From an uncultured virus (IMG/VR IMGVR_UViG_3300025141_000059) (Duplodnaviria; Heunggongvirae; Uroviricota; Caudoviricetes), in IMG/VR virus record IMGVR_UViG_3300025141_000059: a stretch of 64,000 bases of DNA. The stretch is one strand, 5' to 3'. The notes beneath the pieces are model-generated. The model had not been told where the DNA came from. It did no database searches and worked only from the letters and a program-made list of their open reading frames with translations. The translations under genes were made by a program, and so were the position numbers. Of this stretch, positions 1,367 through 53,611 are shown one piece after another. Position 1 is the first letter of the stretch; every line of letters begins with the position of its first letter.

Positions 1367-1647
1367 CCTTCGGTGTGTGAAAGCACAGTTCAACAGTTGA
1401 TAGCGTTGAACTGATGCATGTACCACTGAAGGCATGGGGAGTTATTGTAAGGACAATTGTTGCCAACAGGAAAATCTACGGAGTTTATACTTCAGGGGGT
1501 TTTCCTGAGACTGCAAGTGATGATTGATCTTGTAGAGTGGGAATGTACGCCCATGAACAATTGTCCTTTTCGATTCCTTCATAAGTAATGGTGTGAGTGT
1601 TCATAGGTGAAACAGGACGCTCACACCATATTTCCCCCTGTTTCACC
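1367..1647 (+). ncRNA. Candidate structured RNA (3-way junction, 4-way junction, pseudoknot)
   Basis: Stems at 1367-1375/1424-1432, 1386-1394/1405-1413, 1449-1461/1556-1568 (13 bp perfect), 1588-1600/1617-1629 and 1606-1616/1637-1647. No credible ORF. Confidence 0.55.
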
Positions 1648-2271: not shown

Positions 2272-2307
2272 TATTGTAGTGGTGGCTGTTAATTCAGTCA
2301 CCACTCA

Positions 2308-2361
2308 ACTCGTTTGAGCGAGTATAAATAGGTGTTAGGCTCAAAGCGTCGTAAGGCTCAC
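2308..2361 (+). ncRNA. Pistol self-cleaving ribozyme-like element
   Basis: ACUCG-UUUGAG-CGAGU-AUAAAUAG-GUG-UUAGG-CUCAAA-GCG-UC(GUAA)GG-CU-CAC shows P1, the 6-bp loop pseudoknot, the AUAAA linker, the conserved GCG, P3 and P2 in pistol order. The predicted scissile site is C|U rather than G|U. Confidence 0.8.
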
Positions 2362-2623: not shown

Positions 2624-2703
2624 TGATACTTTAGTCGGTGGCATTCTCCTGCGGGATACGTGATAGTCGTATAATAGGGATTTAACAATTAAACTAAGTG
2701 TGT

Positions 2704-2904
2704 ATGTACGGAACAGAACAGAGACGGAGATATGTGGTAAGGTATCAAATCGCATCTTATTCGGGTGAGGAAGTCGTGTATTGTGATGCAAATGACGATA
2801 GGGAAGTAATAATTGCCAAATGCAAAAGGCAGTTGAGTAGAAATCTTCCCTTGCCTTATGGTAGCGAATCCTTTACTATTATTGAACGTGAAGATGCAGG
2901 ATAG
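2704..2904 (+). CDS. Hypothetical protein
   Basis: ORF on the coding strand with an A-rich leader. Confidence 0.6.
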   Translation: MYGTEQRRRYVVRYQIASYSGEEVVYCDANDDREVIIAKCKRQLSRNLPLPYGSESFTIIEREDAG

Positions 2905-2940
2905 AGAGAGCGTAGAGAGCGAGGAATAAAGGATACTAAT

Positions 2941-3300
2941 CCTAACAAGCATGCAGATGGCGCCCACCGAAGGGTACGCGATCAATACCATGATTCTGTA
3001 GGACTTGTTAGGTGAGAGAACTCTGTAAATAAAGGAGGTTTGGGTAATCCTCGGTATGGAGATTGCTGAATAGACGTTAAACGGCTTGCAGGCAAAGAAG
3101 TACTAAATGATCCATCAGAGTTCTCTCCACTAACTAACGCCTGATGCAACCAACTGAAGAGTTGACAGGTGTGATGATAAGCTTTTGCGTGTCCGACTTA
3201 TTATCATTGGGAAAAAGAGAACCCAAGAAATCTCTTTACAGTAACACGAGTCGTCAACCGGGGAAACGGTCAAGGAAGGGTAATCAAGCCTTCCATTTTT
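2941..3300 (+). ncRNA. Candidate ~360-nt multi-stem structured RNA
   Basis: Stems at 2941-2949/3004-3012, 3014-3025/3116-3127 (12 bp perfect) and 3172-3181/3197-3206. Ends in GGAAGG/CCTTCC plus a T tract. Confidence 0.5.
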
Positions 3301-3337
3301 ATTCTAAACTGACAATTAAAATCATAAACTAAGAACA

Positions 3338-3784
3338 ATGAAAAGGGAAGACATAAAGAACAATGTATCTTATAGAACAGTTGACAGTAATTTCTCTTAC
3401 CCTGATGATCCTGGTACAGGATGGTATAGAGTATGTCAACTTGATGTACGTGATGCTGAAAGAATACTTGCACATCACTTTAAAACAGCAGGAATACGTA
3501 TCAATAACAAATATGTGGTACGTGTGAATGACAATGATGGTCAAGAGATCTTCATATACAACCATGATGGTCGTTATTATCTTGTAAATCAAACTCAGAA
3601 AGCTGTAACGAAAGAAGCTATTGCTCACGCGAACGCGTATGGGGATAAAGAGGAAGAAGAAAGAGAAAGAACAGCGTTCCAGGAAGCAGCTGAGGACTGG
3701 CTCAACTATTGGAAGAAGAAAGAGAAGAAGAAGAAAAAAAAGTTCCTCATTAGCTTCGATCAATTATCCCTTCGAGGTGGATAG
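3338..3784 (+). CDS. Hypothetical protein with a poly-lysine C-terminal tract
   Basis: 148-aa ORF with a leader shared with the 3840 gene. Confidence 0.75.
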   Translation: MKREDIKNNVSYRTVDSNFSYPDDPGTGWYRVCQLDVRDAERILAHHFKTAGIRINNKYVVRVNDNDGQEIFIYNHDGRYYLVNQTQKAVTKEAIAHANAYGDKEEEERERTAFQEAAEDWLNYWKKKEKKKKKKFLISFDQLSLRGG

Positions 3785-4097
3785 TGTGGCTCACGATCCA
3801 AATTTTACTCTAAACTAACAATTAAAATCATAGAGAACAATGAAAAGGAAAGATCGTACAGGTATAATGTTTACAAGGTCACATTCAACATGGAATAAGT
3901 TTGTAGCTATTCTTTCAGATAAAATTTCAAGAAAAGGGTGTGATCATAGTTATGTAGAGACTCGTAAGACACTTTATGTACATATAGAGCCAAAATACGA
4001 TATATCTATAAGTGATACTAAAACTATGGAATATTTTAAGAAATATGGAGGATATTGTGATTGTGAAATTCTTTTTAATGTGGCTCACGATCCAAAT
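3785..4097 (+). repeat. 19-nt exact direct repeat TGTGGCTCACGATCCAAAT (3785-3803, 4079-4097) flanking the 3840 gene
   Basis: Read directly from the sequence. Confidence 0.9.
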
Positions 4098-4103
4098 ATT
4101 TAA
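3840..4103 (+). CDS. DUF2695-like protein
   Basis: C-terminal GGYCDCEILFN motif, recalled as characteristic of DUF2695. More AT-rich than its neighbours. Confidence 0.65.
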   Translation: MKRKDRTGIMFTRSHSTWNKFVAILSDKISRKGCDHSYVETRKTLYVHIEPKYDISISDTKTMEYFKKYGGYCDCEILFNVAHDPNI

Positions 4104-4160
4104 CTAACTTAAGACTGGGAAATAAGATATAATAAGTATTAACAAATAAACATCAATCAA

Positions 4161-5271: not shown

Positions 5272-5303
5272 CAATTTTAATCATTTCTAAAATCATAGAA
5301 AAA

Positions 5304-5900
5304 ATGGCAAAGTCAAAAGTGACCGTGCAGTCCGTAAATGCACAGATTGAGAGCCTTCAGAAAGGTGATACCCTTTTAGTACAGGCTATTAAGACCTCTA
5401 ATAAGGACAAAGTTCAGTTGGAGTTCGCAGAGAAAACAGCAAGTGTGAAGGGTAATTCCGGAGCTCTGTTGGGAATTTTGAACAAGAGTGATGATCGTTT
5501 CAACAGTGGAGCTCGTAGGGCTTGGATCACTGCGGAGATATCTGATCTTGCAGAGCAAATGGACCTGAACTGCGATGATGGACAGGATTGGGTGGATCAC
5601 CCGACCATGGCCAAAAAAGAGGTTCTGCCTTTGGGCATCAAGAACCCTGTTCTTGGAGATCTTCGATTGAGAGTTCAGATCGAGGAGACCACAGAGGCTA
5701 CCGAGTTTCAGGCCGATAACATCGACAGCTCTGCAAAGAGGAGAGGTGCGGACGGAGACTTTATCACTCACAACGGTGAGTACATCTTCAGTAATACTGT
5801 TGTTGTACCATTGGCAGCAGGCGATGAGCCTATTCACACTATCCTTAAAGCGGATGCGGTGACTGTTGGAGCCAAAGTGGATGATGAGGTAGGAATGTAA
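5304..5900 (+). CDS. Hypothetical protein, likely highly expressed
   Basis: 198 aa, A-rich leader and its own terminator. Confidence 0.85.
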   Translation: MAKSKVTVQSVNAQIESLQKGDTLLVQAIKTSNKDKVQLEFAEKTASVKGNSGALLGILNKSDDRFNSGARRAWITAEISDLAEQMDLNCDDGQDWVDHPTMAKKEVLPLGIKNPVLGDLRLRVQIEETTEATEFQADNIDSSAKRRGADGDFITHNGEYIFSNTVVVPLAAGDEPIHTILKADAVTVGAKVDDEVGM

Positions 5901-27800: not shown

Positions 27801-29623
27801 GTGAGAGCTGTGTCTTTTTCCTTTTCGATCTCCTCAAGACGCTTGTACATCTTATTCAGAAGCTTGTCGAGATCTTTGTTTCCACTTTCTTCCTGAGCAT
27901 AAGGAATGTGTTGAAGGAACTCGCCTTTCTCGTATCCCATCTTAAAGGTGTTGATCACGCCCGGCTTGTCTCCTTCCCATTCGAAATCCACGTGACCGGG
28001 TATTACCCTGGAACGTCTGATATTGGTAATGCCGTAATTGTCACGCAGTGTTCTTGTGTATGATGATAACTGAAAGTCGTGACTCATTCCTCTTGACCCT
28101 CTGAACGGGTCCACAACTATGCGCTTAAGCATGTAGGATCCTTTGGTGTTCTTTCCGTCAGGACTGATGAATTTGTAGTCATATATACCGGCACTCGCAT
28201 CGGAGAACAGGAACATGATGTCCAGGGTCCCGGCAGTGTCAGAGCTTTCATCATATACACGTACCTCGTTCATGAGATCGAATGTTTCTTCTGAGTTGAT
28301 CTCGTCCTGAACAGCCTGCATTTCTATTAGAAGGGACTCCATTTCTTCTCGGAAATTCCTGAGCATGTTGTCTGCCAGACCTGATTCCTCTTTTATCTGC
28401 GACCATTCAGGGATCTCTATATTCTCGAGATTGATGAGCCTCACTCCCTTCACGTATCCTTCTTTGGCCAAACGCATCAGAATGTGCTGCCCAGTGATAT
28501 GCAATGCGGTACCAGCAAGCCTGGTACGTTCGGTCTTAGGCCTTTTCCAAATGTCTTTTGCTCTCTCCAATCCTCCGACCGACTGTATGAATCTCGCCGT
28601 CGATACATCTGAAGGACGTCTTGAGACCATTACTTTGGTGCCGTCTGGCATGAGACGCTCATAACGCATGATGGTCTCTTCTCCTTTCATGACAAATTCA
28701 AGGTTGGATATCTTCCCTTCCAGCGTTTCTCTGGTGAATTCTCTTTCAAGAATAAGATTGTCGTGCACCTCAACCATTCTTTTACGCACCTCTGTGGCAT
28801 CAGCTGTTGAGTAGAAAGAACGTGTCTCAGTTGTATTGGCTACGGCATTTTTGTGTTCTTCCCGGATCTTTGAGAATGCCTTATATGCTGCCTTGGTCTC
28901 AGGGTCCTTATATACGTTGAACCATGATTGTAGCTTGGCCCAGGTACGTCTCCACCACCGACCTTCTCTGTCCATGAGCTGAGGGTTCTGAAATCTCTTG
29001 GTCACAACCCTACCAATTGCTTCGTGCACGTGGTACTCTTCGTTCTCGTCTGGAAATTCCTTTCGAACATCCTCATACTCCGTGGTAGTATAGATCCTTC
29101 TGCGGATAGAGGCGTGCAACGGATCACCGATATCTTTCAGTGCTGTCATGAAGAAGTGAATTACCTCTTCGTCCATTTCCTCTTCGTGGCCAAGGACAAC
29201 CTCAATGGCCCTGTTGAAGTGGTGAGCAGCTGCCTTTGCGTTTACCGGATTTCCATCTTCGTCTTTGATCGACCCTACAACTTCGTAGCTTAATCCAAGT
29301 TTGTCAGCAAGGATTCTTGTAGCGGTACTCAGTCTCTCCTGTAGCTCAGCCTGGTTCTCTTTAAAGAAGTCTACATCAGGCTCTTTGAGAGCACTCTGTA
29401 CGCGGTCGAACAATGGATCATTGAAGTATACCCGATTGTCTGACACTTGCAGTGGCAATCCCTTCACTCCATATCTGGCGTTCAGTCTATTTCCCAGTCG
29501 CTTTGCTTCCGCAAGGAGCTCAGTTGAAGAAACGGTCTTTACAATGTCCCCCGCTTCATCAAGGGCCACCATATTCTTGGCTTCCAGGTACTCGTGAATC
29601 TGATGTTTTATACTACACGCCAT
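24806..29623 (-). CDS. Large virion cargo/ejection protein with a PD-(D/E)XK nuclease-like domain (1605 aa)
   Basis: Coupled to the RNAP gene (TAATG). Has E..AGTLD...IYDYK...QLSSY, a degenerate zincin-like EEVIH and a hydrophobic C-terminal region. Confidence 0.8.
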   Translation of the reverse strand: MACSIKHQIHEYLEAKNMVALDEAGDIVKTVSSTELLAEAKRLGNRLNARYGVKGLPLQVSDNRVYFNDPLFDRVQSALKEPDVDFFKENQAELQERLSTATRILADKLGLSYEVVGSIKDEDGNPVNAKAAAHHFNRAIEVVLGHEEEMDEEVIHFFMTALKDIGDPLHASIRRRIYTTTEYEDVRKEFPDENEEYHVHEAIGRVVTKRFQNPQLMDREGRWWRRTWAKLQSWFNVYKDPETKAAYKAFSKIREEHKNAVANTTETRSFYSTADATEVRKRMVEVHDNLILEREFTRETLEGKISNLEFVMKGEETIMRYERLMPDGTKVMVSRRPSDVSTARFIQSVGGLERAKDIWKRPKTERTRLAGTALHITGQHILMRLAKEGYVKGVRLINLENIEIPEWSQIKEESGLADNMLRNFREEMESLLIEMQAVQDEINSEETFDLMNEVRVYDESSDTAGTLDIMFLFSDASAGIYDYKFISPDGKNTKGSYMLKRIVVDPFRGSRGMSHDFQLSSYTRTLRDNYGITNIRRSRVIPGHVDFEWEGDKPGVINTFKMGYEKGEFLQHIPYAQEESGNKDLDKLLNKMYKRLEEIEKEKDTALTRREGNTLKRSIQDILTKANFKRLLSDIDEMIEQIETRIEIDDPNAEGYMGWDELRHSIDVLGMYGMVHDATLSYIESLPEDEQTERIANLKKASDNASSAMKMVRTKSEKRLTDAAEFPLEVVSMTTGIMDEFVPMAEVDNQYFKEIYHRVMLATDRAKRQAEELRVKWLKLDDDLESWAKRTKNKKSVAFDMLIRTTPDQRFKLITIFNEKFREERDRRIEEALTTKSGTKLSSHVKWMKERFQYREGAKEKYLERLKKKKAELLKEYGSTKNDGYKNGLDWYKSNYDVWNRDSAWVTRSWGVNLEVKPSAATSEGLWSKEYATILRPENKEVLEYFNAWKEQLRDFDEILDNHDISFDMIPSVRAGMLERKASWSLLEDVMLRPWVIQVEDDDHSVGTPPKKVPLPGINTARNKNGDFDTRIVSKDMTRIMYKFGQAVYNNVEKSNIESEVLLLRNMLAEGEELVGERNILGRKRGGALKPDDTTKETVALLDKYVNYYLYGHTMSHGDINLFKIGSKQVTATKVAKALNTAYGVLKIAAPIRIALGTQAAASIFMRIESIKGVQYSSENLTQAMKMWSTDYRNYMSAARYFNLHQEGEELHYERRLRANKADQWLDSSILFEPLTLTDRSIDRRIGIAMMLNHGIDEKGNLKRLAQLPKDSKNILELLKVKDGKVGKELPANVRLDLRKRIQFMAKEVKGDQGEENVIAMHMNLGAQLIGKFKWWMPGTLTARFGGIKYHSILDELKEGRFIGAGKAMAVGGDLIQEEKALHTLALRSFNLLKNSMLEFARIRRYRVTKAERQRLKEKNNWSDPEEEKYLKDREVLRAEMKLFKKNQTDPYFETMDEEDFFAMREASVARTFAEVRTVLILLLASMVMGAASGPDDEEFYKKAWASRRLMDIMAKIILETTFYMNPVEMLKFNKSMIPMLGLLGDVTRLLGNTAQETARLFGILDKDARDKTPLFYYTLMFVPGWNQLRKIIEMHPQDKQVRVN

Positions 29624-32600
29624 TAACTATTGCATTCAGTAGGGTCATTAGCTTCGTCCTCATTCAATGTAGGCAACCTTCTTTGAATAACTACGCCGTC
29701 CATCATGTTCAAGTGCGTTCTTGATCTCTTTCCGATCATTGCACTTTCCTCCACAACGGTGGATTCTACTGCTGACGGCTTTAAGTTACTCACATCATTG
29801 TCAAGTGAGTAATATACGTTCTTGAACAATACGGTCTCTTTCTTTGGCAAAGCTATGCCTTCTTTCCTTGCCAGCGTACGTGCACTTGCACTTTCTGCTG
29901 TTTGACGTTGGGTATACGGAAACAATAAGCGCTTCTTATCGTTAGGGCCCTTTTTTCTGTTTTTCTTGGAAGCAGTGAAGGTGCTGTTCTCGATAGGAAC
30001 AATACGGATATCGTGAGTATTGTTCTTGAAGAACTCTTCAAAGTAATCTTCTGCAGCAACCTCTATGATCTCTGGATCATTCACGTATTCGTGCAGGATA
30101 TCTTTGGCAACCTCCATAAAAGAGCTACCTGGTATCAGTTCAAGGAAAGACTGTGGTGTCTGCCCTATTCCGGACTGAAGGAACGCAGTAAGAATGATGT
30201 CCCTTGCAAGTAACGGATCGTCTCTTTCTATTTCTCGGAACCCGTCAAACAAAGTTGTCTGTTCCGGATTGTTCATTGTACGGAACAACGGCTCAATGTA
30301 ATCGTTCTGCTCATTCAGTGTCTCTGCCGCAACAACAGGAACAAGTGCCTGGATGAACGGGTTCAACCTGAGCTTCTCATTATCCTCACTGTTGCGGATC
30401 TTGTTCAACCTGATGGCCATGGTGTTGTTACCGTAAAGCAGTCTGGTAGCGTCATTTCCGATCTTAGGTTTTCCGTTCAAAGAAACCCTCTGTATAAGGA
30501 ATGATACAAATCCCTCTTCGTACTGGTTGAGTATACGTACTCGGTCATCTTCTGATAACCATCTTTTACGTGGATCAGTGAAAATGTCGACCATATCTCT
30601 GAAGCCCTCATTGTAAGCTTCTCCTGCCTGTTCAGTAAGGAATACGGAATTCAACACGCCCTGCATGGTCCGGTTGTATCCGGTCATTGACTTAAGGAAA
30701 GTGTCTCCTTCAGTGATCTGCTTAGCATTGGAGAATGTCTTTCCGTTGATCACTCGCTCATAGTTTGCAAGTGCCAATCTAAGACCGTTTCTACTCTTAG
30801 GTGGCTTGGTGTCAAATGACTGAGCTGTTGTCATAGCTGAAAGATCCTCACCCAGGTGTTCGTATAGAAGGAAGTCATTCAGTATCTGCAACTGCGCTTC
30901 TTTCTGAGCCTTACCCATTTCGGTCTTATGCATTCCGACCATGTCGTATAGTCCGACACGCTGATCTTCTGGAAGGTTTTGATCGTCCTTGTCTATGAAG
31001 TAGTAATCGGTCTCACTTCTGTTCTTTACCAAGTATGATCTTCTGATCTTCTTAAGGATCGCTTCTCTATTGCCCTCGACCTCAAGAACTTTCATCATTC
31101 TACTGGTCTTAACTCCGTATTCGTGGAGGTATTCCTTGATGATGGGTTGGTTCAGGAAGTATGTCATTGAGGACATAGGTACTCCTGCTCTGAGAAGAAA
31201 GAGCCCTGTCGGCGCTACATCCGGTCCCATATTGATAAGGTGAAGCAGTGGTTCGTTCACAGCATCCACTGCAGCCTGTACAAGTTGACTGATAGCATCA
31301 CTTATTCTATACGATACAGCTGCCGGATCGTAATGCGGACTGTTCGGGTCAGTATACGCCTGGTTGACATCGTTTATTCTTCCGAGAGATATCTGATCCT
31401 GATCATTATTGAATCTGTTGAACCTGATCTGGTACTTAAGATTTTGCCCGGTAGGAGCTTTAAAGCTGTTCTCCACCATCTCAGATTCTCCGTTGCTCTT
31501 CGTTTTCAGGGTGCGCAGGTTCAATTTAAGACCGGCCATTTGAGACTTCACGTGGTGCGTAGATGCCAAGGCAGTTATACTTACAACCGTTCCTGCTTGC
31601 CAGAATGCTTCTGACACTGCCATAAGGTGCTTGAAAGAATTCGCGTGATAGTAATCAGTAACATCTCCAAGATCAGTAAGATTTCCTTTTTCAAGCATCT
31701 CTTTTCCTAAGGTCTTCCACTGCTCCATGTGTGTAGGCTGCAAGAATGTCTGTTGACGGTTCCTGTTCTCCAACATCTTGACCATCATATCCATGATCCT
31801 GTTCTGGATAGCTCCTTTGGAGTTCACGACATATTCTGTCGCATCAGGGTTCGCTGCTCTCCACTCGCTGTAGTTGTTCTTAAGCGCTTCGAAGTCCTTC
31901 TTTCTCTGCTCGAGTATCTTACGTGCTATTTTCGGACTCTTCTTGATGACAGACGCAATGTGCTCCATGTCGTCATCCTTCTCAAACAATCCCTCTAATT
32001 CCGGATCGTCCCTCAACTTGTCCTCGGGTCCGAACACGCGGTCTACGAATCTCTGTGCTATTTCATTGGCAACAGTATCGTCAAGTTCCTCCACCCCCCT
32101 GCTTCTTCTAAGAATTCCTTCGATCTCCCCAAGAGATTCCTCAGCCTCAGCTTTAGCGATCTTGTACCACGTTTGAAGATCCTTATGGAACCTTTCCTTC
32201 ACAAGCTTCTTGACCCCGTTCTCTTTCACCTCCACCTTATATGAAGGGAAATACAGTACGAGTTTGTCAATATCAAAATCCGAACCTGACTTGGTAAGCA
32301 GCTCTGAAGGAACAACAATGGTAGGACCTTGTGATCTTGGCAGGAATGCCTTGACCCTGATCACTTCAATTGAGTGTGTTCCGTCAGCCGGAATACGGAT
32401 ACCCATAAGCCTAAGCAGGTTCTTGCTTCCTACAGCTTCTTTCTGGCCGTCAATATAGATCGCTCCATCCTTACCTACACGTGCACCTTTACCGATAAGC
32501 TCTTTGAAGTGGTGTGGAAGGTATACTTCCATTTCACCGCCTTCCATGTAGAACTTAAGAGGTTCCATTTGGTTGATCACAGAATCTCCGAATTTTTGCT

Positions 32601-35600
32601 GTACTACCTCGTATCCAAGATTGGACTTCTGCACATACATGTCTCCGTGGAACCGCTGTCTGATCACACGTTTTCCGGCCAGTGACCAGAGAAGGCCTTC
32701 CATCCTTCTCTTGTTCACCAGGAGGTCGAACAGAACCGGTTCTTTAAGATCATTTGACTCCTGAAGTCCGTCCATTCCGTCAAGAAGTGCCTGTGACAGA
32801 TCTCTTCGGATACCTTCTTCTTTCAGGGCGTCTATGAAGCGGGTGTAATCGTTATTCCTTATGTTGTACTGACCATCAACCTCTTCAATATTGAATTCGT
32901 CAAGAAGATCTCCAAAGGCCTTATCTGTAAGCCCGTTCAGTAATGCGTGGTATTCTTTGATGTTCGCACGTAGACTTCCGTGAAGAAGTTTTCCGTCCTC
33001 AAATAGATCAGACAACACCTGTACTCTTGCTTGGGTACTGATAGGAGATGTCCCTTTGAACTTAGGGGCCACTTCTAACTGCTCTCCCATGAAGCGAAGA
33101 TCGAATGTTGTCTTCATCTCTTCTTTAACCAGGGGCTTTGGATCAATGGTTCCGTCAGCATTGAATAGTTCAACTTGAGCATCTTCAGTAGTAAGACCTA
33201 CTTTAAATGCAGTTGGAATAACTATGCCTCCGACATTATTGTCTTTCATGATATCAAACAAAGACTGCAAGCCTGGGTACTCAATTCCCGCCTCAGGGTA
33301 TACCGGTACGACCGACATCTTAAGGAAGCCCATTGGTTGGATCTTTCCTTTGGCCCATTTCTGAGGTCCGAAGTATTGATACTTGGCTGGAGGAAACGCT
33401 CCTAATTTGATCTCTGGCAGAGTAGTACGTTCACCTCTTCTATATGCGAGTATCTGGTGGAATGCCTTGTCCTGTTCTGGCAACCAGCTACCCACACGTA
33501 ATCCGTACTGTCTGTAATCCTCGAGGGTTACAAGCAGGGTTCCGTCAGCCTTATCTATTGCCTTTCTGTACGCAGGCTGTAGTGCAGGCGGATACTTATC
33601 AATAAGCCTTGTAAAATCTATAGGTTCCTTAGCAAGGATCATGTCAATGAACCCGTCTGTTCTCGACATGCCAAGGCTATTTGCTGACAACCAATTGTTG
33701 TACATAGGATCCACGTCCATTAGCTTCTTGGTTCCGTATGTTCCTTTTACACGCTTGAACAATGCCTTGTATAGTGCCGGGTCTCCAAGGATCACCTTAT
33801 AGTACTCGGTATTCTGAATGAACTGGGTCACAGTAAACTCTTCTGCGAACCCTTCGATCTCTTCTTCCAGGACAGTATCAGGAAGAGTGTCCTCAGGCTT
33901 ATTCTTGAAATACTCCCTGTTCAGTCCGAATAGGGCCCTAGAATTCCTTTGGTCCTTCTTTCCGATCAATCCCTGCTCTTCAAAGAACTCAATGTTCTCC
34001 TTCACTGTCGCTTGTAGGTTCTCGGTAATGCTGGACCATATCTCATTCCAATTGTTATCAAGGAATGCATTGATCTTCATACGTCTTCTTGAAGGATCCT
34101 TTCGGATGATCTCATTGTATACCGCAGGATCGTCGATCAGCTCCTTTACGATCTTGGCCTCCATGTCCTTGCCTACAAGAGCGGAGAACTTTCTCAGACC
34201 CTGGGTCTTCTTGTTGAAGTCCTCAAGGAATTGTCCTTCTGTGTTGCCTTTGACCCCGGCAGCTATCTCGTCCTCGAGATAGTCGTACATGAGGTCCTCT
34301 ACATCTTTGATCGTCTTGCCGTGTTCAATGTTGAACTTCACACCAAACTCCGTCTGCTGATCTGCAGCACGTGGCGATATGGAGATTCCGTCCATTATAG
34401 CTTGTACGTGGTTCACGACAATGTCTGACATCTTAAGACCAGGCATCTTGCTTCCCGTCTGTCCAGGAGCATCTACCTGTATTCCGGCCATGTTCACCAC
34501 ACTGAAGCTTTTCCTCTTGTCCCACGACGCAAGCGCAAGAGAGTTCTCCCCGAAAGGATTGTTTGCAGAGTCGTAATATGTTGACAGCTCCTTCTTACTC
34601 ATGTTCTCCAATATAGTGATGTACATGTTCAGAGTAATGCTGTACTCAAGCTTTCCTTCTGCATTCTGGAACTGGAACTCAAACTCCCTGGTTCCCGTGG
34701 CCCGTTCGATCTTCGCAAGTCGATTCATTCTCGTGACACTTTTGGCCACAGACCTATCAAAGAGACTGGCCTTGATCCCGACCCTTGCTCTCGGAATACG
34801 AGAATCTTTCCCTGTGTGGTATACAGTGAATTTCGCTCCTATCTGAGTAAGGTATTCAATGAATTGACTATCTACTCCAGGCATGTCTCCTACAACGAAC
34901 TTTGCACCTTTTGCCATGGCTATGGCGATACGCTCTTTTGTCACTGCTGAGATATCAGTGCCCTTCAACTTATCGTCTCTGGCAAGCATGATGATCTTAT
35001 TTGTAGGCCTCCACGCCTCTACTGTATTCCCGAGGTTTCCACCTGCTCCTGCAGCATTGTTCTTAAGGCCGAATACTCTCCAGGACGTTCCTATTGAAGA
35101 GAACGACTTGTACTTACGCGGTTCTACTCGAGGAGTTCTGTCCATTTCCCCAATGAACCCGTCTGCAACCTTACGCATTGCTTTGTCTTTGCCGTCTCCC
35201 TGAATGGTTTCTTTTCCTTTTGCTTCGTGACCACCGGATACTTCAAAGTTGTTCTTAAGTACGTCATTGATGGCATGCATCAAAGCGTCTCTCAATGAAC
35301 TTGAATATGTCTCATTATCAATGATCTTATTCGCGTTGTCCTTGATCTCTTCTCTGTTGGTGAAGTTGATGCCGAATTTCTCGAGCCCGTCCATTACCAG
35401 GTCCAGGTTCTTGGATCCCGTGACCTTCTTTCGAAGATCGTCAAACGTGATCATGTCGTTCTTCTTTCCTACAGGGAATGCTCCTTCTGCAGCAAATTGA
35501 ATGCTTCCGTTAGGAGTAAAGCTTACGTGTCCTTCATTGACAAGAACAGCCATTCTTCTCAGATTGGAGTTCCACTCATTCTTGATGGAGCGTTGAGCTC

Positions 35601-38600
35601 TTTCCATACTCGGATCCAACGACCCTATACGGCCGTTCTCTGATAGAAGGGTCTGTCTGACCTCCATCATTGTCTGTCCAAACTGACCTCGGAACTGTGT
35701 ACGTAGAAGCATGGTCTCTAATGCCTCTTCTCCAGTGGTAGCGTATGAGCCCAGTCGAGCAGCAACATCTTCCATCCAAGGGAACTCAGGGGCAAGGGCC
35801 TTCATTGTGTTCAGTTGATCAAGGTAGTTCAATTTTCCAGCAAGTTTGTCCTGTAGTGTTTTCAGGGTGTCGCGAAGCTCGTACACACCGTGGAGCCCGG
35901 TAGAATTCCTTACGGTCTTGTTCGGAATTGTGGCCAATAGTATCCTGATACGTCGGGACGCTCTTTCTGTCGGAGACACTTCCAAGCTCTCGCTATCCTC
36001 TTTCCAGTCTTTCGTCCTACGACCATTCTCATCCTTATCGTCTTCAGCCTCTATGGTAAGACCAAGTTGATGCATGTATGCTCTGTGCAATCGAGAAATC
36101 TCATTTCTTCTAGCGACCCCTTCTATTGGTTTGGCACCGTCTTTCTCTGGCCAGATGATCATACTACGTCGTAATAGATCCCCTCTTCCAGCGGCATCAG
36201 CCTCGTTGTAAGCGTTTCTGTAGCCGATCCACATTCTCTGGTAAGCCTCTTTGTATACTTTACCGATACGCTTACCCATGTCTGAAGAAGTGCTTACTGT
36301 GAAGTTGAGCAGTTCCTCAAATGAGATATTCGTGTTCGGATCAGTGATAACGTCAGCCACGTACGCAGACATTGTCGACATAAGGTCCTTTGAGTAGGTA
36401 GCGCTCTCCTCTCCGAGGATCATGCTACGAAGCATCGCAGTTCTCTCTGTCCAGTCTCTTTTAGGATCCGGAAGAGACTCATACATTTCTCCTTTGACGA
36501 TCTTGCTGAACAGATCTTTGATGCCTCCCATTTCTGGGGATATCTCGAGACCCCTGGTCATACCGAAGCGTGCTCTGAACCAGTTCAGTATTGAGTCGAA
36601 GAATTTCTTTAACCTGGAACGGTCGTCTTCTACAGTGTCCTGGCCAAGTTTGTATTCTCCTTCCCACAGAACATATCTTCTGAATTCCTCTGCAAGCCAT
36701 TCCTCCGCTTCCTTGTCGGTAAGCTTGGACATCTTCTTTTCCTTGCCCAAGTAAGTGGTTGTGCTTCCAGGTATTCTACGTACCAGGTTGTACATGTTTC
36801 CGCTTTCATACGGAGAAAGGAAGAACAGCGAAACATTGTGGAAGGTTTCGTGATACAGGGTACCTCCGACAGCCAGTCCCTTGGATATCAATATCCGGCC
36901 GAGACCATCAATGAGCCCGATGGCATCCTTACCCATGAAAGGTATGGTTCCGATGACCTCAACTATCTCCGCAGAACTCATTCCTTGGGCCCTTTTCAGC
37001 TCTTCGGCGTAAGTTTCCTTCATGTAACCCTCTCCCAGCTCCTTACCTACCTCAAGAAGAAGAGGTGCGGGCCCTGAGAACGGGTCAGTGTCTTTTTTGT
37101 CGGCAACGCTGTCCTTACTACTACTTTGCTGTGTTGGTTTATTTAAAAAATAATCTAAAGCTGTTGCATGAGAAGGTCTTCCTAAATCTTTATAGTAATA
37201 AATTGTCTTACCTTTTAGTTCAGGAACTTTAGCCAATAAAGCATTTCTGTAATCTTGCATTACATTTTTATCTCCTTTACCTTCTAACCAATCTAAAAAT
37301 CTAGTAACTGATACAACAGTCTTTTCTTTTATAGCTCCATAAGGACCAAAAGGATTACCTACAGCATTATCTTCAAGAGCATCAATCATATTCTGCTCTG
37401 TCTTACCCTCAGTTCTAAATGCTACTACTGCACCAGCTTGAGGTTTTTTACCTTTAACTGTATCAATAACTACCTTACCTCCTTTAGGAGCTGTTTCAGT
37501 ACCTAAATCAACCTCACTACTTTGTTGTGTTGGTTTAACACTTAACGAAGCTTTAGTATTTTCTGTATCCGGAATATCTTCCCACGGAACATCGTCAGAT
37601 GTATCATCGTCAGATTTCTTCTTCTTTTTCTTTTTGAAAACGTTCTTCAGCCGTTCCTTTTCTTCGTCGGTACGATTTTCTTTACGCTTCTGCATTCTAT
37701 CCATTGCCTCATCAGTGACCTCGTCATCTGATTGAATGGCGTCCTCTGCCCCTCTGGACGGAGCTTTTTTGAAGATGCTGTCTCCATCAGCAGTGCTTCC
37801 TGACGTAGGATCCGCTCCTTTACGAACTCCTCCGAGCCGTGGGCCAGCTCCACCTGGGCCTCCCCTCTTAATTCCCGCAAGAGTAATATGGTCTTCTTTT
37901 GCAAACGTAAAGTAACCTCCCAGGACACGAGGAGCATTCAATTCTCCAAGGTTTGCGATAGGCTTTACACGTGTTCTAAGTGGGGATTGCTTATCTCCTT
38001 TTCTGTCTTTCAGCAGGTACTCATTGTAGTTGTTGTAGAGCACGCTTGTGTCGGAAACAGAAAGATCAGCGTCAAGATGTATTTCTCCCCAAGGGTATTT
38101 TGATTCGCTTGACTTGGTCTTTTTGGTCATGTACCATTTAGGTCGTACATATCCGTTATTGGTAGACTGAGTAACAGAATTCTTTAATGCATCGTGATCT
38201 ACCTGGTGGTATTTAGTAAGAAGGAAAGCTTTCATCGCTTCTATCTTCTTAGTATTCTCCTCGCTTTCAACCGTAAAGGTCTCAAGGTTTATAGATGTTC
38301 CTTCTGCTCCGAATGTAAAGCCTCGCTTATCGTGACTCAATCTATACGCTGGGTCCTTCCGTTTCTTAGACCCGATGTATACCATCTGGTTGAGTGTGTC
38401 CCATACATTGATCTCCGTTCCGTCAACAGGGACCGTGAATCCTTTCTTAATGCTTTCCCAGGCCTTCGCTGTATTCTTGTATACGGCAACATTTGCAGCT
38501 CTCAATGCTTTTTCCTGAAGTAGAAGATGCATCATTCTTACAATATTTTCTGCTTCAGAAGAATCCAGTAACCGGCTATGCATCGGTATCATCATGTGAC

Positions 38601-41600
38601 GCACGTCATCATAGGCAGCGATCATACCTGCTCTCAGCATCATGCCAGGAAGATTGTTGTACGGTATCAAGGATACAGTATCCGCTTCATCCTCTGCCTC
38701 TTCCTCGCTACCCTTGGCAACCATCAAAAGAGTGTCCTTGTAAGCTGAAGAACTGTCAGTCACCCTTCCCAGGTTCTGACTTGGTTGTTCTCCGCCTTCA
38801 AGAAGTATGGTTCCCAGATGTTTTCCGTTCACCTTGAACAGTAACTGGTCCAGTCGTGGAGTTCCGTCTTCGTTTTCAACGATACTCTTTCTAAAGCTTG
38901 CCCACTCTTCTCTGATCAGCTCTTCGTCCACTCCAGGTGGTACAATGAACCTACTGTAAGGGTCTCCTGCTTTGTTCTTTTTCAAGGTAGGAAGCATCAG
39001 TGAGGTATACACGAATGACTTGCCCTTTCCTTCTTCATCCTCAGAGACACGGACAAAATCATTTACCGGAGTGATCTTCTTAACACGTTCCCACTTCCAC
39101 TGACCACGATTACCCTTTACTTTCTCTGAAGTGTAACTTGTGTGGTGCTCTCTGAACAGAAATGCTTTGATATCCTTGTGCTCAGCAGTATCCATGAACA
39201 TGTCTTTAGTGATGCCTTCATCCTTCAATTCCTCAGGAATGTTTCCGCTGTGGATAAGGACAACACGAAGACCGAGTTTGTCTGATGAATTGTCGACATC
39301 AGGATCGTCTTTTTTAGGCTTCACTACAGAACCGAATGGCTCTCCTCCCTGGATCTCTTCAAATTCTTTGGTTCCCTCAAACTTGATCCATTCCTTTCCT
39401 CCCTGCAGGTAAGTGAACCATCTTAATTGGCTCTTAGCATTCTCAAATTCACGAGACTCGTCATCTTTCAGTACGTGCTTAGAGTCCTCCTCAAACAGTT
39501 CTGCGTATCTATTATAGGTTTCAAGGGGCCCTTCAATGTCTTCTCTTTCAGATGCGTGCCACCCAGTGGTCTTATAGAAACCAGGGTTTTGAATATCCGG
39601 AAGCTTGTAATCGTACGGACGCCTTCCTTTCTTTTTCTTACGTTTCGCCTGGTCAGTTATGTGGTCAAGCTCAGCGTCTTCAGTTGCATCCTCAGCAACA
39701 GAGCTCTTTTCAGAAGCGGTTTTCTTTGCTTCCACCTTCTCTTTGTCGTCCAGGGACTGATTGATCACGTGTTCCCACGCCTCGAACGCGACATAGGCCA
39801 CTTTGATGGTGTCAATGTTCTTGAAGTTTGTTCCGGCCTTAACTTTAAGGCCTCTTATCGCCCGGAGACTCCTCTGCAGATCGGCAAGCTGCTTCTCGTT
39901 GATGTCGAGTTCTGACCCCAACCAGTCCGCATCTGTAGCATCGAATGAGGTATCGTCGTTGACGAACGCATTCAATAGCTTCCACAATTGACCTCTGTAA
40001 GTTTTGAGGTTGGAGATACGCCCCTCTACCTCGATCTCTGCTTCTGTCAAGGCCTCCAGCTTCGCACCGAAGATCTCTCTGTGCGTATCAATGTCCCTCA
40101 AACCCTCCATTACGGCCACTTCCGTGTCCATCACACTCTCGAGAGGGGTGCCTTTCAAGGCCTCCATCACGTCTGTGTTGACAATGTCGAGCATGTTATC
40201 GAAGAGCATACCTCTCTCATTGATCATCTCCAGGACAGCAAGTCCCTCCTGAACATTCAATCTGTCAGACCTGAGCAGTTCGGCCTGCTCTTCATAATCT
40301 TCAATGAACTCGGTGAGTTCGTTGATCATCTCTTTAAGCTTGGCCGGAGTAGTATTGGTCAGGATCTTACCGTTCGCATCTCTAAGAATGATACGTCCCT
40401 TAGCATTAGGTTTCGTATTCAGAAGAGGTATGAGTTCAGTTGTAAGTCTTTCGACCTCATCCTGGAACTCTGCGACCTTGGTATCTATGTCGGATATCTG
40501 CTTAAGCTTGGCTTTCTTGGCCTTGGCTACTTTGGCTTTGAGCTCAGCTTCAGCTTCGTCGTTCTCTGCCTTCGTTTTTAGTTGGTCCTTAACGCTTTCG
40601 GTCCTGCTCTCTTCCTCATTCTTTCTGTCAGCCTTGTCTTTTTCGATCTGCGTATCGTAAGCTTCCTTAAGCTTGTTCAACTCTCCTTGACGATACTCTT
40701 CATCCAACAATAACCTGAATGACTCCGCTGCAGCCTGTCTTCTTGTACGGATACGTCTGATATCGTTAAGAAGCTGAACAACTTTCTTTTCTTTCTTTGC
40801 CGCTCCTTCAGGATCCAGTTTCTTCCACTCTTCAAGCTCAAGTGCCGGCTTAAGGATCTTATTGTATTCCTCAGGAGAAAGGCGTGCTTCCGCTCCGTAA
40901 TTGCTTCTTACCCCTTCAAGTTGGGCCAATGTGTTCTTGTAGGTCTTAAGAGTTTCTTCCTGCTCGTCTGAGAGCTCGTCAGAATTCTCCATCATCTCCA
41001 CTGCTTCCGTAAGCTTGACGATATAGTCTTCTACTTTGGCTGTTTCAGTGAATGCTCCTACGTCTACTGTACGTTTCTTTCCGTCCTTGTCGGTATACTC
41101 GATCTGATCCACCTGATCTTTAACCTCTCTGATCACACCATTGGTGTCCTCTGCCATCTCTCCTATCATGGATCTCTCCCTGGCGTCACTATCATCCATT
41201 ACAGAAAGAAGATGCGTGAGCTGTCGCCTCAGGTACCCAGGGGACATGATCCGATCCTCATGAAGTATCTTCTGAGCGGGTGTCATTCTGGTGTAGCCAT
41301 CTACAACCTCCATGGCTTCCTGGATCTTGTCAGCTCTTTCTCTTACAGCCTTGACCACTTGTGCTCTACGCTCCGACACCTGATCGTCTGGAAGCTCTAA
41401 TTCCGTATATCCACCTACTTCTCTAAAAGCCGCGGCATCAAGAGCTGCGATCATCTTCAGGTCATTATCAATATCCTTGAACTGACCAGTGTTGAGCTTG
41501 GCCATGGTGTAGTCAAAGAAGTCGTCAAACTCGAGATCCTTAGCAAGACCAACATCTCCATTCTGAAGAGCCTCGTCCATCAGTTCAGAACGTTTGATCA

Positions 41601-43242: not shown

Positions 43243-43255
43243 TACTCCCAAACTA

Positions 43256-45499
43256 TCAAAAGTTCCATGCTGTATTTCTGTCCGTGGTCTCTTTGAAGAA
43301 CTTAGCTTCAGTAGCACCAGAAACGAACATGTATCTCAGTGCGTCCCTTGTTATTATGTTGGTGAGCTCCATACCGAGGTTTCTTCCGCCATTTGGTCCT
43401 GATATATATCCTCTGGAGGTCTTTCCATCAATGAACCCACCTGCACCATCAGACATTTGCTCAGTAAAGACCGGAGCAGGAACAATAGTTATAAGTTCGT
43501 TTGTAGCTGCATCTCTTACACTATGAAACAGCATTGTTACTTTATACTGAACAACAGCACTTCCTTTTCCTCTACCAGCAGCATAGTTAGGTACAATAAT
43601 TGACTCTCCTGCTTGACCGTTCTTGACGTGTGCGTGCAGTCTTGCAATTGGATTGAACGCAGCTCTCATCTGATCCGTAAGACCAACCTCTAAGTCGTAC
43701 CTAGTGCTTTTACCGTCAAAATACCTCACTCTGAAGTTTCCAGGGACCTTTCCGTAGACCCTCATTCCTCCCATTTCAAGGGCTGCGTCTCCTACATCAA
43801 GTTTACCTTCTCCTCCTTTATGGATATTAAACATCATACTCCTTACGTCGCCCTCAACATCTGCCTGCGGGTTAAGGTGGTTCATGGTCAGGAATTCAAT
43901 TCCTTCCGTGACAAATCCAAGTTGTCCAAGTATCGGAACGTCTTTCAGAGGATCTTCATCAGAACGTTCTTTTGCTGCAGAGGCCCATGTTTCGAAGTTC
44001 TGTACCTGTGTTGAATGATCTGCATCATACACCAGTGTTGAAAGTAGATACTTGGCCATCCATCCTGCAGCTACCTGACGACCCCAATCAGTAGGAAGGT
44101 ATTCTTTAGATATAAATGCCAAGCTTGCAGAAAACGCTTCGTCCAGTGCTCTGTGGAACTTCTGGTCAGAATCACCAGGTTTTTTAAGATATTCATACTT
44201 ACGATCGTAGTAACTATATTTCGCAGTTGGATTGTGCTTCCAGAAATTTGGGTCGACCTCCATAAGACCACCTGCATCGTCAACGACCTTATCAACGCGC
44301 CTCTCGTTCTCACGTATAGCGTTAAGAATGTTTCGTTGTTGCTGAGACGGACGTGTCCAGTGCTCTGGGTGTGAAGGATCAGCTGTGCTGGCGACTGCAC
44401 TCGATACTGCCCATTTTTCTGCGTTGTACTTAGACTCTCCTGCTTCATTGTATGTTGCAGCAACCGCTTCTGAATCATTCCAGTCAATTCCACCAGGAAG
44501 AGCCCCAGAAGAAGCAATGTCGGTGAGGTAGCTGACCGAAGGAGTTATTGCTTCGGAAGTTGGCGCTGGTCTACTAGAGAGAACTTTCCAATAGAGATTA
44601 TCTCGGTAGGATACTTCTTTTCCGATCTGTGGGCCTGCGACAGAAACAAGATCGTCAAGCATTATCTCTTCAGCTTCGTCTCTGGTAAACAGCTTATTCG
44701 TTTCTCCGTCGATTGTAAGTTCGGTCAATCGCATCATCTTCTGCTTACCCTCCTTTGAGGACAGATATGCGTGCAATACCATTTTGGCCACGTCCCTCAC
44801 CTTGGTCTTATCAACTTCCTTACCTGATACAAGTAGAGCTTCCATCTCTGCAGCTGAAAGACCGGTTGCTGTGGTCACCTTCTGTATCCAGACAGGATCA
44901 GATTTGATGTTGTTCATCAACGTACGTGCACGTTCAATTGCGTTAAGCTCAGGCTCTATCTTAGGTCGGTAAATACCGTCCACTGCGGAATCCCAAGTAC
45001 CGATGGCATCTTCATATATGACGTTATCATCAGCATCACGCTCAGCTTCTCCATTGATATCAAGCTTTGGTCTACGGTGGGTGTCTATCGGACGAGTTCC
45101 CTCTGATTCCATCTTGGTCTTCAGCTTTTCGCCGTCCTTCCAGGCCCCGTACGTATCTATAGCATTCAGAACATTGTGGTCTGTTGCGAAAGCCGTGATG
45201 CTCTCTTGAACAGCTCTGTTGGCCAAATGGTAGTTACCAGAGTTGACCACGTCGTTCATTATATCGTCGACCTTGTTCCTGATATTGGTAATATGCTTCT
45301 GATCCCCAGGAACGGTCCTGATAGCACCGATAGACCTTGAAAGGTCGTCCATATATACACGGTTAGCATCAGCTGTCTGCTGTTGCTGCTGCATTATATC
45401 GGGCAATCTTGACGGTGCCGAAGGTTGATACTGTACAGGAACAAAGCTTCCGTACGGATCTCTACCTCCACCGTCCTGGTATTTCTTTAATTCCTCCAT
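43256..45499 (-). CDS. Putative virion cargo protein (747 aa)
   Basis: Directly upstream of the RNAP gene; begins KKYQDGG; TAATG coupling. Confidence 0.8.
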   Translation of the reverse strand: MEELKKYQDGGGRDPYGSFVPVQYQPSAPSRLPDIMQQQQQTADANRVYMDDLSRSIGAIRTVPGDQKHITNIRNKVDDIMNDVVNSGNYHLANRAVQESITAFATDHNVLNAIDTYGAWKDGEKLKTKMESEGTRPIDTHRRPKLDINGEAERDADDNVIYEDAIGTWDSAVDGIYRPKIEPELNAIERARTLMNNIKSDPVWIQKVTTATGLSAAEMEALLVSGKEVDKTKVRDVAKMVLHAYLSSKEGKQKMMRLTELTIDGETNKLFTRDEAEEIMLDDLVSVAGPQIGKEVSYRDNLYWKVLSSRPAPTSEAITPSVSYLTDIASSGALPGGIDWNDSEAVAATYNEAGESKYNAEKWAVSSAVASTADPSHPEHWTRPSQQQRNILNAIRENERRVDKVVDDAGGLMEVDPNFWKHNPTAKYSYYDRKYEYLKKPGDSDQKFHRALDEAFSASLAFISKEYLPTDWGRQVAAGWMAKYLLSTLVYDADHSTQVQNFETWASAAKERSDEDPLKDVPILGQLGFVTEGIEFLTMNHLNPQADVEGDVRSMMFNIHKGGEGKLDVGDAALEMGGMRVYGKVPGNFRVRYFDGKSTRYDLEVGLTDQMRAAFNPIARLHAHVKNGQAGESIIVPNYAAGRGKGSAVVQYKVTMLFHSVRDAATNELITIVPAPVFTEQMSDGAGGFIDGKTSRGYISGPNGGRNLGMELTNIITRDALRYMFVSGATEAKFFKETTDRNTAWNF

Positions 45500-52643: not shown

Positions 52644-53611
52644 TAATAATTATCTCTTTGGAACTCTTCTCGAGTATTCAGGTCCTGGTAGAACGTAATG
52701 TCTCTGTTCAAGTTCGGTGTAAGTCTCACCCATTGATCCATAAAGCTTTCTGCACGTGGAAGATCAGGATAATTTGCTGCGTTCCTTGCTTGGGTGCAGT
52801 AGTTCAACCACTGACCATGTGCTGCTTCATAACCAATTGCCGTGTTCTTAAAGACCACTCCCTGTAGGAGCATCTTCTTATATACGTACCAGAACATTGC
52901 CTCTCTGTAAGAGATGTCGTCCGGAATCATTGGCCAACAGTTCTCGTCGAGTGGAAATGCTTTGTATGAAACGCAGATCTGTCCAGAGGCAAATGATGTC
53001 TTGAACACACCGCAATCAACCACATATGTAGCCTTGTAGCTTGAATATTCGTTCACACATTCATCGCAATGCATGCCGTGATTAAAGGTCCCGCTTCCAT
53101 ACTGAAGGTTGACCATGCAAGACCCATCAGAAGGAAAGTACTGGCTCTGAAGGACTGCAAGTTGCGAGTTAATGTCTCTGAGCTGATTCAGGGTTGTAGA
53201 GTGGTAACTGTCGAAGTCCTCGAGATCATCCGGCGTGAGAGATGAATTATAGGTCCCATTTCCAGACAGCGTAACGCTTTCAGTTACTTGGGCATAGTAT
53301 ACAGCAAGGTCATCTTGCAGTGCTTTCTGTTGCCGGAGGATCTCATCCATGGTCTCTGTAGTAGCAGGGGTCACGCACGTGTTCACTGCAACAGAGTCGA
53401 TGTAGTATAGATCACCAGGAAGGCATCCCCTATGATCACTGATGTTGATCACAGCATGCTTGGTGCATAACTGTGAACTGGCCCCAATGTGTTCGAGGGC
53501 TTCCCCGAACCATTCTACTGCGTCATGGATGAAATTGGTAGACGCCGGTTGAAGATCGCGTAATATCTTCCGAATGACCTGTTTGCTGGATACATGTTTA
53601 TAAGTTGCCAT
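52643..53611 (-). CDS. Tail ring / tubular protein
   Basis: SSKQVIRKILRDL..EW.GEALE.IG and DEN..PMIPD; canonical position before the muzzle gene. Confidence 0.75.
   Translation of the reverse strand: MATYKHVSSKQVIRKILRDLQPASTNFIHDAVEWFGEALEHIGASSQLCTKHAVINISDHRGCLPGDLYYIDSVAVNTCVTPATTETMDEILRQQKALQDDLAVYYAQVTESVTLSGNGTYNSSLTPDDLEDFDSYHSTTLNQLRDINSQLAVLQSQYFPSDGSCMVNLQYGSGTFNHGMHCDECVNEYSSYKATYVVDCGVFKTSFASGQICVSYKAFPLDENCWPMIPDDISYREAMFWYVYKKMLLQGVVFKNTAIGYEAAHGQWLNYCTQARNAANYPDLPRAESFMDQWVRLTPNLNRDITFYQDLNTREEFQRDNY

Follow-up and report, generated by a model that had tools for sequence, protein, structure and literature searches.

Positions 2308–2362 of the window, which is the whole 64,000-nucleotide stretch of DNA analysed here (an uncultured virus, IMG/VR record IMGVR_UViG_3300025141_000059), carry what is almost certainly a true element of the pistol class of self-cleaving ribozymes. 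The explanation that we favour, and consider probably correct as a whole, is that of a functional, compact pistol with a C|U cleavage site, situated in a region of small open reading frames (ORFs) in a marine crAss-like phage. The class itself is known and the novelty is modest, consisting of a compact subtype with C in place of the consensus G on the 5' side of the cut. Pistols are reported in Weinberg 2015 and Harris 2015, and the env25 and A. putredinis forms are said to have been crystallised.

Class assignment and architecture

The entire window was compared on both strands with 4227 Rfam families using cmscan, and Pistol (RF02679) was the sole family to reach its gathering threshold. The match lies at 2308–2362 on the plus strand (55 nt), and its 52.2 bits (E 1.2e-6) exceed the gathering score of 34.5, which bears out the pistol assignment of the original prediction, and the alignment takes in model positions 1–68 of 68, that is, the full length of the model. 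One further Rfam match appeared at E ≤ 1, a sub-threshold match to STnc540, which at 23.9 bits falls short of that family's gathering score of 38. A second covariance model, R1, which was built from eight other viral pistols with the window excluded, gave the window pistol 52.9 bits (E 3e-10 in 295 kb). That the element is short is all that speaks for a chance resemblance within the intergenic spacer, a reading made exceedingly improbable by the E-values over all Rfam families (1.2e-6) and with the independent model (3e-10), and by the identity of 41 nt at its 5' end to pistols of unrelated contigs.

The fold begins with P1 (2308–2323, plus strand as for all elements described here), a 5-bp hairpin of ACUCG (2308–2312) and CGAGU (2319–2323) whose loop UUUGAG (2313–2318) pairs with CUCAAA (2340–2345) to form the pseudoknot, in which six of six pairs are Watson-Crick. 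The linker AUAAAUA (2324–2330) leads into the 5' strand of P2, GGUG (2331–2334), which pairs with CACA (2359–2362) through G·A, G-C, U-A and G-C; P2 is made up of these three Watson-Crick pairs and the outer G·A, a feature common in other pistols. The core UUAGG (2335–2339) is joined to the conserved GCG (2346–2348) by a G2339–C2347 pair. It is followed by a minimal P3 (2349–2356), consisting of U2349·G2356 and C2350–G2355 capped by a GUAA tetraloop of the GNRA type (2351–2354), and by the two-nucleotide P3–P2 junction C2357 U2358 (2357–2358), which the Rfam alignment sets on the consensus GU. In the sequence and in the Rfam alignment alike, P1, the pseudoknot, the linker, UUAGG, GCG, P3 and P2 fall where they had been predicted; the 2-bp P3 with its GUAA loop and the non-canonical C|U site, with C2357 on the consensus G, were likewise seen.

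Judged by this alignment, G2346 would correspond to the general-base guanine G40 of env25, G2348 to its G42, and the G2339–C2347 pair to its G33–C41 pair, and G2348–C2357 could form a third P3 pair. The scissile bond is predicted, by analogy with the family, to lie between C2357 and U2358.

The conserved core is complete, with the AUAAA linker, UUA-purine-GC and GCG all present. The window has 22 of the 22 invariant columns of a 41-sequence alignment (A1), most of which the search had preset. Three positions of A1 that the search left free, T3, G24 and the almost invariant T42, are matched too. The P3–P2 junction is exactly two nucleotides long and reads CU in place of GU, the U being retained and C standing in the position of G. 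Harris 2015 (PMC4604425) describes the scissile GU as modestly conserved and somewhat variable, and the length of the junction as strictly conserved. Given this described variability and the retained two-nucleotide junction, the C|U site leans towards an active variant.

A cut after C is also the mark of a pseudoknot-type hammerhead, which, according to PMC11300833, shares its helices and connectivity with the pistol and has a C-1/U+1 cleavage site. The catalytic loop and general acid of that ribozyme differ from what is seen here: the loop from P2 to the pseudoknot in the window is the short pistol UUAG and not a CUGAUGA core, no hammerhead family was matched at E ≤ 1, and the pistol model was matched over its full length, leaving a hammerhead very improbable.

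Distribution of the C|U junction and the short P3

A scan of IMG/VR with the conserved pistol 5'-half pattern returned at least 124 stretches, 99 of which, together with the window, served as input to the R1 alignment, duplicates and the last 14 loci being left out. The 107 distinct matches that were aligned comprised 68 that were clean at the 3' side and 39, mostly with a long P3, that were dropped. Among the matches listed, the junctions of the 68 clean viral pistols were GU in 63, CU in two, AU in two and GA in one, the two CU pistols being those of the window and L020, and the shortest P3 (8 nt) was shared by the window and L026. The 39 dropped rows contained several A|U forms confirmed by Rfam at 40–69 bits.

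A second scan made use of the P2 common to L020, L026, L094 and the window (GGUG/CACA) and allowed any base before the cut. The stretches of this sub-lineage numbered 13 in viral records, 39 in metagenomes and one in a genome, and as the genome scan yielded one MAG only, it gave no clue to the host. Viral and metagenome matches amounted to 53, with 31 unique sequences, in which the base before the cut was G in 21, C in seven, A in three and U in none, a few of the 31 (e.g. the L141 group) having no P1 and being probably false. U before the cut was equally absent from the clean viral pistols among the matches listed (0 of 68).

Viral and metagenome contigs contained seven distinct C|U pistols, each of which scores higher than the gathering score of Rfam (7/7 loci tested; 50.3–52.6 bits for the six other than the window). 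P3 has at most 3 bp in all seven, and the distance from GCG to the junction is at most 14 nt in 7/7 C|U pistols versus 5/24 other sequences (Fisher p 3e-4, a value that overstates the association because the rows lack phylogenetic independence). One group of related phage contigs, of about 80% nucleotide identity, accounts for the six other C|U forms, so the subtype is represented in only about two independent contexts. By these sequences, pistols that combine a C|U site with a minimal P3 make up a natural subtype that recurs, and no description of a compact C|U pistol subtype was found in the literature covered.

The loci of this group (L128/L180, L136/L181, L138/L182, L144, L160 and L162) have a 3-bp P3 of the form UUC-loop-GAA, with GAAA, GAGA, GGGA or 8-nt loops. 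The first 41 nt of the window pistol are the same as those of L138 and L160, identical at all variable positions too, and the flanks of the other C|U pistols have no detectable protein similarity to those of the window. These sequences suggest that the ribozyme module has moved between unrelated marine phages.

The RNA that follows the pistol differs between the two contexts. The other C|U pistols have a conserved promoter-like motif (TATATATGTAACTTATACC) on their 5' side, and are directly followed by a conserved stretch. Over ~1.7 kb no ORF of at least 80 aa was found there, whether translation used the standard code or let any single stop codon be read through. Across the six sequences, the first ~300 nt after the pistol are folded by RNAalifold into 67 pairs, 19 compensatory, with a long-range closing helix; this stretch has no Rfam match at E ≤ 1, contains no tRNA and has no counterpart in the window by nhmmer. 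It is a candidate new structured RNA, the 5' end of which would be trimmed by the predicted pistol cleavage, and the placement of a pistol before such a candidate RNA in that group supports the general idea of the subtype as a maker of 5' ends.

Other RNAs were seen near pistols of the wider set. In L024, where the features lie at 94–475 (−) and 837–912 (−), an A|U pistol is followed ~360 nt downstream by a GOLLD RNA (197.9 bits). In L035, with features at 132–205, 436–510 and 1498–1557 (+), two type II hammerheads precede a pistol.

Signs of selection on the fold

Covariation was assessed in a model-based alignment of 26 sub-lineage pistols, a set that includes three rows with a misaligned 3' end and one truncated sequence; the pseudoknot is absent from the aligning model, and P2 was preset by the pattern. 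In this alignment standard pairs occupy 90.4% of the cells versus 70.7% in shuffles, and the covariation score is 0.414 versus 0.126 when shuffled, a score attained by 0 of 500 shuffles, with controls in which the 3' partner was slid reaching at most 0.093. Changes on both sides of a pair were found in 5 of 6 pseudoknot pairs, 3 of 4 modelled P1 pairs and 7 of 7 P3 pairs. The C|U forms vary in the pseudoknot by a U-A to C-G swap and by a G-C to G·U change, and otherwise in the Y of AUAAAY and in P3 and its loop, the conserved core being untouched. An intact core together with compensatory changes among the C|U forms is not what is expected of a decaying relic.

The closest record, G001, is a fragment of this virus with an identical sequence, and because the window phage has been seen as identical copies only, selection is not measurable inside its own lineage. 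For this phage, fifteen marine metagenome runs were listed, with no RNA run among them, and the contigs of four were compared; in X4–X6 the contigs of the phage omit 2342–2375, and in X3 a near-identical 2-kb contig crosses the ribozyme site with no differences.

These observations bear on the possibility that the element is a pistol-derived fold with no or very slow cleavage, either a relic or a structural element put to another use, e.g. as a protector of a 3' end together with the hairpin upstream of it. Such a fold would be consistent with a C in place of the consensus G before the cut, with a P3 of only 2 bp, with the rarity of C (2/68 clean viral pistols among the matches listed) and with a very stable hairpin 2 nt upstream, which suits a structural 3'-end module. 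Against it, the core positions are all intact and the core mutations expected of relics are not seen, the Rfam score stands 17.7 bits over the threshold, the seven C|U sequences hold the fold by compensatory changes, and the identity of the cut site is described in PMC4604425 as varying within the family. We consider a non-cleaving fold unlikely and, as far as the sequences can tell, the window pistol is probably an active variant.

The phage and the ribozyme locus

The minus strand encodes very large virion proteins, and a crassvirus muzzle protein domain (PF25731, E 9e-41) and a crAss ring protein 1 domain (PF24228, E 5e-49) on this strand identify the phage as crAss-like. The regions 47568–53611 (−) and 29623–43317 (−) take in the muzzle and ring domains and the adjoining ORFs, one of 4564 aa that matches only a PHROG of unknown function and one of 1605 aa with no match. 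DNA polymerase, helicases, primase, exonuclease and rIIA/B-like proteins are encoded on the plus strand between 7.9 and 24 kb, and the best cultured or named relatives of the DNA polymerase include crAss-like phages, at 26–28% identity. The ribozyme is positioned in a region of small ORFs at the left end of this plus-strand block of replication genes. The genes of the window have no Shine-Dalgarno sequences, as expected for Bacteroidota, which are presumably the hosts. Where the left region gives way to the plus-strand block lies a bidirectional terminator-like hairpin (1336–1355) with T-runs on both strands, and a related IMG/VR record begins at window position 1321, just before this hairpin.

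The public runs listed with this sequence are marine metagenomes. Other contigs in X3, X5 and X6, seven of them in X3, match only 2307–2350, the 5' half of the pistol, at 80–95%; the many pistol 5' halves in the same samples indicate that pistols are common in these marine communities. A literature search joining crAss and pistol gave no relevant match.

The gene predicted to lie just downstream, 25 nt past the ribozyme, is present in the ORF list. It is an ORF of 78 aa (2387–2623, +), and its ATG at 2387 lies 24 nt past the last ribozyme base and 29 nt past the predicted cut. Its codon log-likelihood is +0.174 bits per codon, compared with −0.36 and −0.49 out of frame, and is similar to the 0.15–0.36 bits per codon of the long genes of the phage. 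No PHROG or Pfam match was found for it, and among proteins of 42–137 aa its sole match was itself, making it an ORFan; its standing as a putative gene comes from its codon usage. On the upstream side, an ORF of 119 aa with a GTG start (1912–2271, +) has its stop 37 nt before the ribozyme; its codon score is weak (+0.044), yet best in frame, and it has no family match in PHROG or Pfam. A search of viral contigs with the 78-aa and 119-aa proteins recovered the same record only. The fold z-scores downstream of the cut, −2.15 for 2358–2690 and −1.49 for 2624–3143, are too modest to decide on structure in that RNA.

The upstream ORF shows some variation of its own. Contigs of three other marine runs carry a 21-nt in-frame deletion at 2235 within ORF 1912–2271 and are otherwise near-identical up to 2326. 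There is also an exact 25-nt repeat (1776–1800 and 2115–2139) and an 18-nt, 94%-identical repeat (1685–1702 and 2017–2034), both spaced by ~335 nt; part of ORF 1912–2271 seems to have a second copy in the apparently non-coding region upstream of it.

The layout of the window pistol between ORFs on the same strand is a typical one. A census covered 72 viral pistols flanked on each side by 700 nt or more and scored mechanical same-strand ORFs of at least 60 aa. Of the 71 pistols that have such an ORF, 32 have its start no more than 60 nt downstream, and in 56 a same-strand ORF ends within 60 nt upstream of the pistol; an opposite-strand ORF within 120 nt downstream occurs in only 14.

The spacer on the 5' side contains a hairpin of 11 bp with a 6-nt loop, UUAAUU (2278–2288/2295–2305, +), in the RNA fold of 2270–2400. 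The original prediction was right about its 11 bp and one position late about its start, which is 2278 rather than 2279. It ends 2 nt 5' of P1, has no U-run and was not called by the terminator scan. When the upstream 45-mers of 106 pistol loci are ranked by folding energy, it comes out as the most stable, at −18.8 kcal/mol. It may serve to terminate the upstream message, to protect a 3' end or to assist folding. The further proposal that it insulates the ribozyme is not supported by comparison: the 106 pistols show no enrichment of upstream hairpins, the mean energy of the 45 nt upstream being −7.0 versus −6.7 kcal/mol in controls (Wilcoxon p 0.50, n = 106). Hairpins do occur at individual loci. 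In the C|U loci L138/L164 and L176 one lies between the promoter-like motif and the pistol, and in L026 a terminator-like hairpin with a U-run is directly 5' of P1. A common two-hairpin motif (GGGTAAYCACCGTTACCT ... GCCTAGGACGCTAGGC) is found in the 45 nt upstream of the pistols of L090, L076 and L063, and a loose end like it was seen in a marine run's contig at the window.

Downstream of the ribozyme locus, a repeated intergenic motif (AATTAAAATCATAG...ACAATG; TTTTAYTCTAAACTRACAATTAAAATCATAG..ACAATG) immediately precedes three start codons, the ATGs at 3338, 3840 and 5304. Its places are 3297–3351, 3782–3853, 4076–4112 and 5288–5312, and the leader at 2363–2389 resembles its 3' part. It is a candidate phage promoter or, alternatively, a leader without Shine-Dalgarno sequences that these genes share. 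Scans for sigma-70 promoters and terminators found nothing at the ribozyme site, the sigma-70 model not being one for Bacteroidota or phage polymerases.

If ORF 2387–2623 had a promoter of its own in the 24 nt after the ribozyme, it could be transcribed separately, and an active ribozyme would then mainly cut read-through RNA, the pistol and the hairpin together setting the 3' end of the upstream transcript. The likeness of the sequence between ribozyme and ATG to the motif before the ATGs 3338, 3840 and 5304 fits this arrangement, as does the position of the hairpin directly after the upstream ORF. The motif is equally a possible translation-initiation leader, and the sigma-70 scan, within its scope outside Bacteroidota and phage polymerases, called no promoter, and we regard a role mainly in cutting read-through RNA as rather unlikely.

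Proposed mechanism of cleavage

The preferred reading is that of an active ribozyme that makes the 5' end of the downstream mRNA. In this model, transcription of the plus strand would allow P1, the 6-bp pseudoknot, P2 and the tetraloop-capped P3 to fold co-transcriptionally, G2346 would act as the general base on the 2'-OH of C2357, and the chain would be cut between C2357 and U2358. The 5' product would run from the upstream ORF through the hairpin to the ribozyme and would terminate in a 2',3'-cyclic phosphate. The 3' product would start with a 5'-OH at U2358 and would carry a 29-nt A-rich leader, free of a Shine-Dalgarno sequence, followed by ORF 2387–2623; the two halves of the mRNA may in consequence have separate fates and stabilities.

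How C might serve in place of G can be considered from the chemistry of the bases. C and A carry an exocyclic amine and U has none. The amine being present on G, C and A, this fits the order seen before the cut, in which G is commoner than C or A and U is absent. In PMC6795133, the exocyclic amine of the cut-site G is described as making a bifurcated hydrogen bond to O6 of G42, the removal of this O6 is reported to cost 700-fold in rate, and the U after the cut is described as pairing with U29. The roles of the GCG residues, with G40 as general base, are covered in PMC6154101 and PMC6795133. In the window, C2357 would stand in for G through a Watson-Crick pair with G2348, the residue aligned with G42; this pair would retain the amine-to-O6 hydrogen bond and extend P3 from 2 to 3 bp. 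A Watson-Crick G-C pair could also have the opposite effect, locking C2357 in the helix and hindering the splayed in-line geometry.

No kinetics for mutants at the base before the cut were found in the literature searched, and the 2-bp P3 of the window is far below the P3 of the assayed constructs in the literature covered. In PMC4604425, PMC6154101 and PMC6765202, no biological role is established for pistols as a class.

Relation to known ribozymes

The window pistol shares with its class P1, the 6-bp pseudoknot, the AUAAA linker, the purine-G-C...G-C-G core, the 2-nt junction, P2, the U after the cut and a location near phage genes. It differs in having C for G before the cut and a 2-bp P3 with a GNRA loop, giving a total of 55 nt, and in its occurrence in a marine crAss-like phage instead of in Firmicutes or their phages.

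The minimal-P3 pistols with a G|U site in the same sub-lineage (such as L026/L129 and L146) resemble the window in their P2 (GGUG/CACA) and their length of 55–57 nt, and have a P3 of 2–3 bp with a GAAA loop (L026 scores 55.2 bits with Rfam). Unlike the window, they have the consensus G on the 5' side of the cut, which makes the extra G-C pair impossible there. The C|U pistols of the related phages have the C|U junction, the short P3 and the same P2 in common with the window; they differ in their 3-bp P3 and in being followed by an ORF-free, apparently structured stretch, in contrast to the ORF in the window. A more distant likeness is found in Bacillus phages (Troll, BigBertha and relatives), where window positions 2307–2351 match 20 records at 88.9% over 45 nt. 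This match represents the conserved 5' half, and those pistols combine a G|U junction with a long P3 (L077) and belong to unrelated phages and hosts.

Significance

The role of the base before the cut, in a class that is otherwise well studied, has been inferred mainly from structures bearing G. A natural C|U form is a test of whether the contact from amine to O6 of G42 matters at that position, and a 55-nt pistol offers a minimal scaffold for engineering. Were the window element not to cleave, the finding would amount to an ordinary sequence relic.

A broader proposal, which we put forward tentatively and hold to be doubtful in its full extent, is that C|U pistols with a minimal P3 form a distinct, horizontally mobile subclass of marine phages. 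These would be the smallest natural pistols (55–57 nt), with a Watson-Crick pair between C and G42 replacing the G·G contact and a hammerhead-like site, and would serve as 5'-end makers for varied cargo. If this holds, the cargo would be an ORFan mRNA in the crAss-like phage and a structured RNA of ~300 nt in the other group.

The locus also provides a phage setting in which the consequences of cleavage can be considered: in the window the cut would split two small cistrons, and in the related phages it would trim a long non-coding RNA. With the element described here, the range of the pistol class is extended to marine crAss-like phages.
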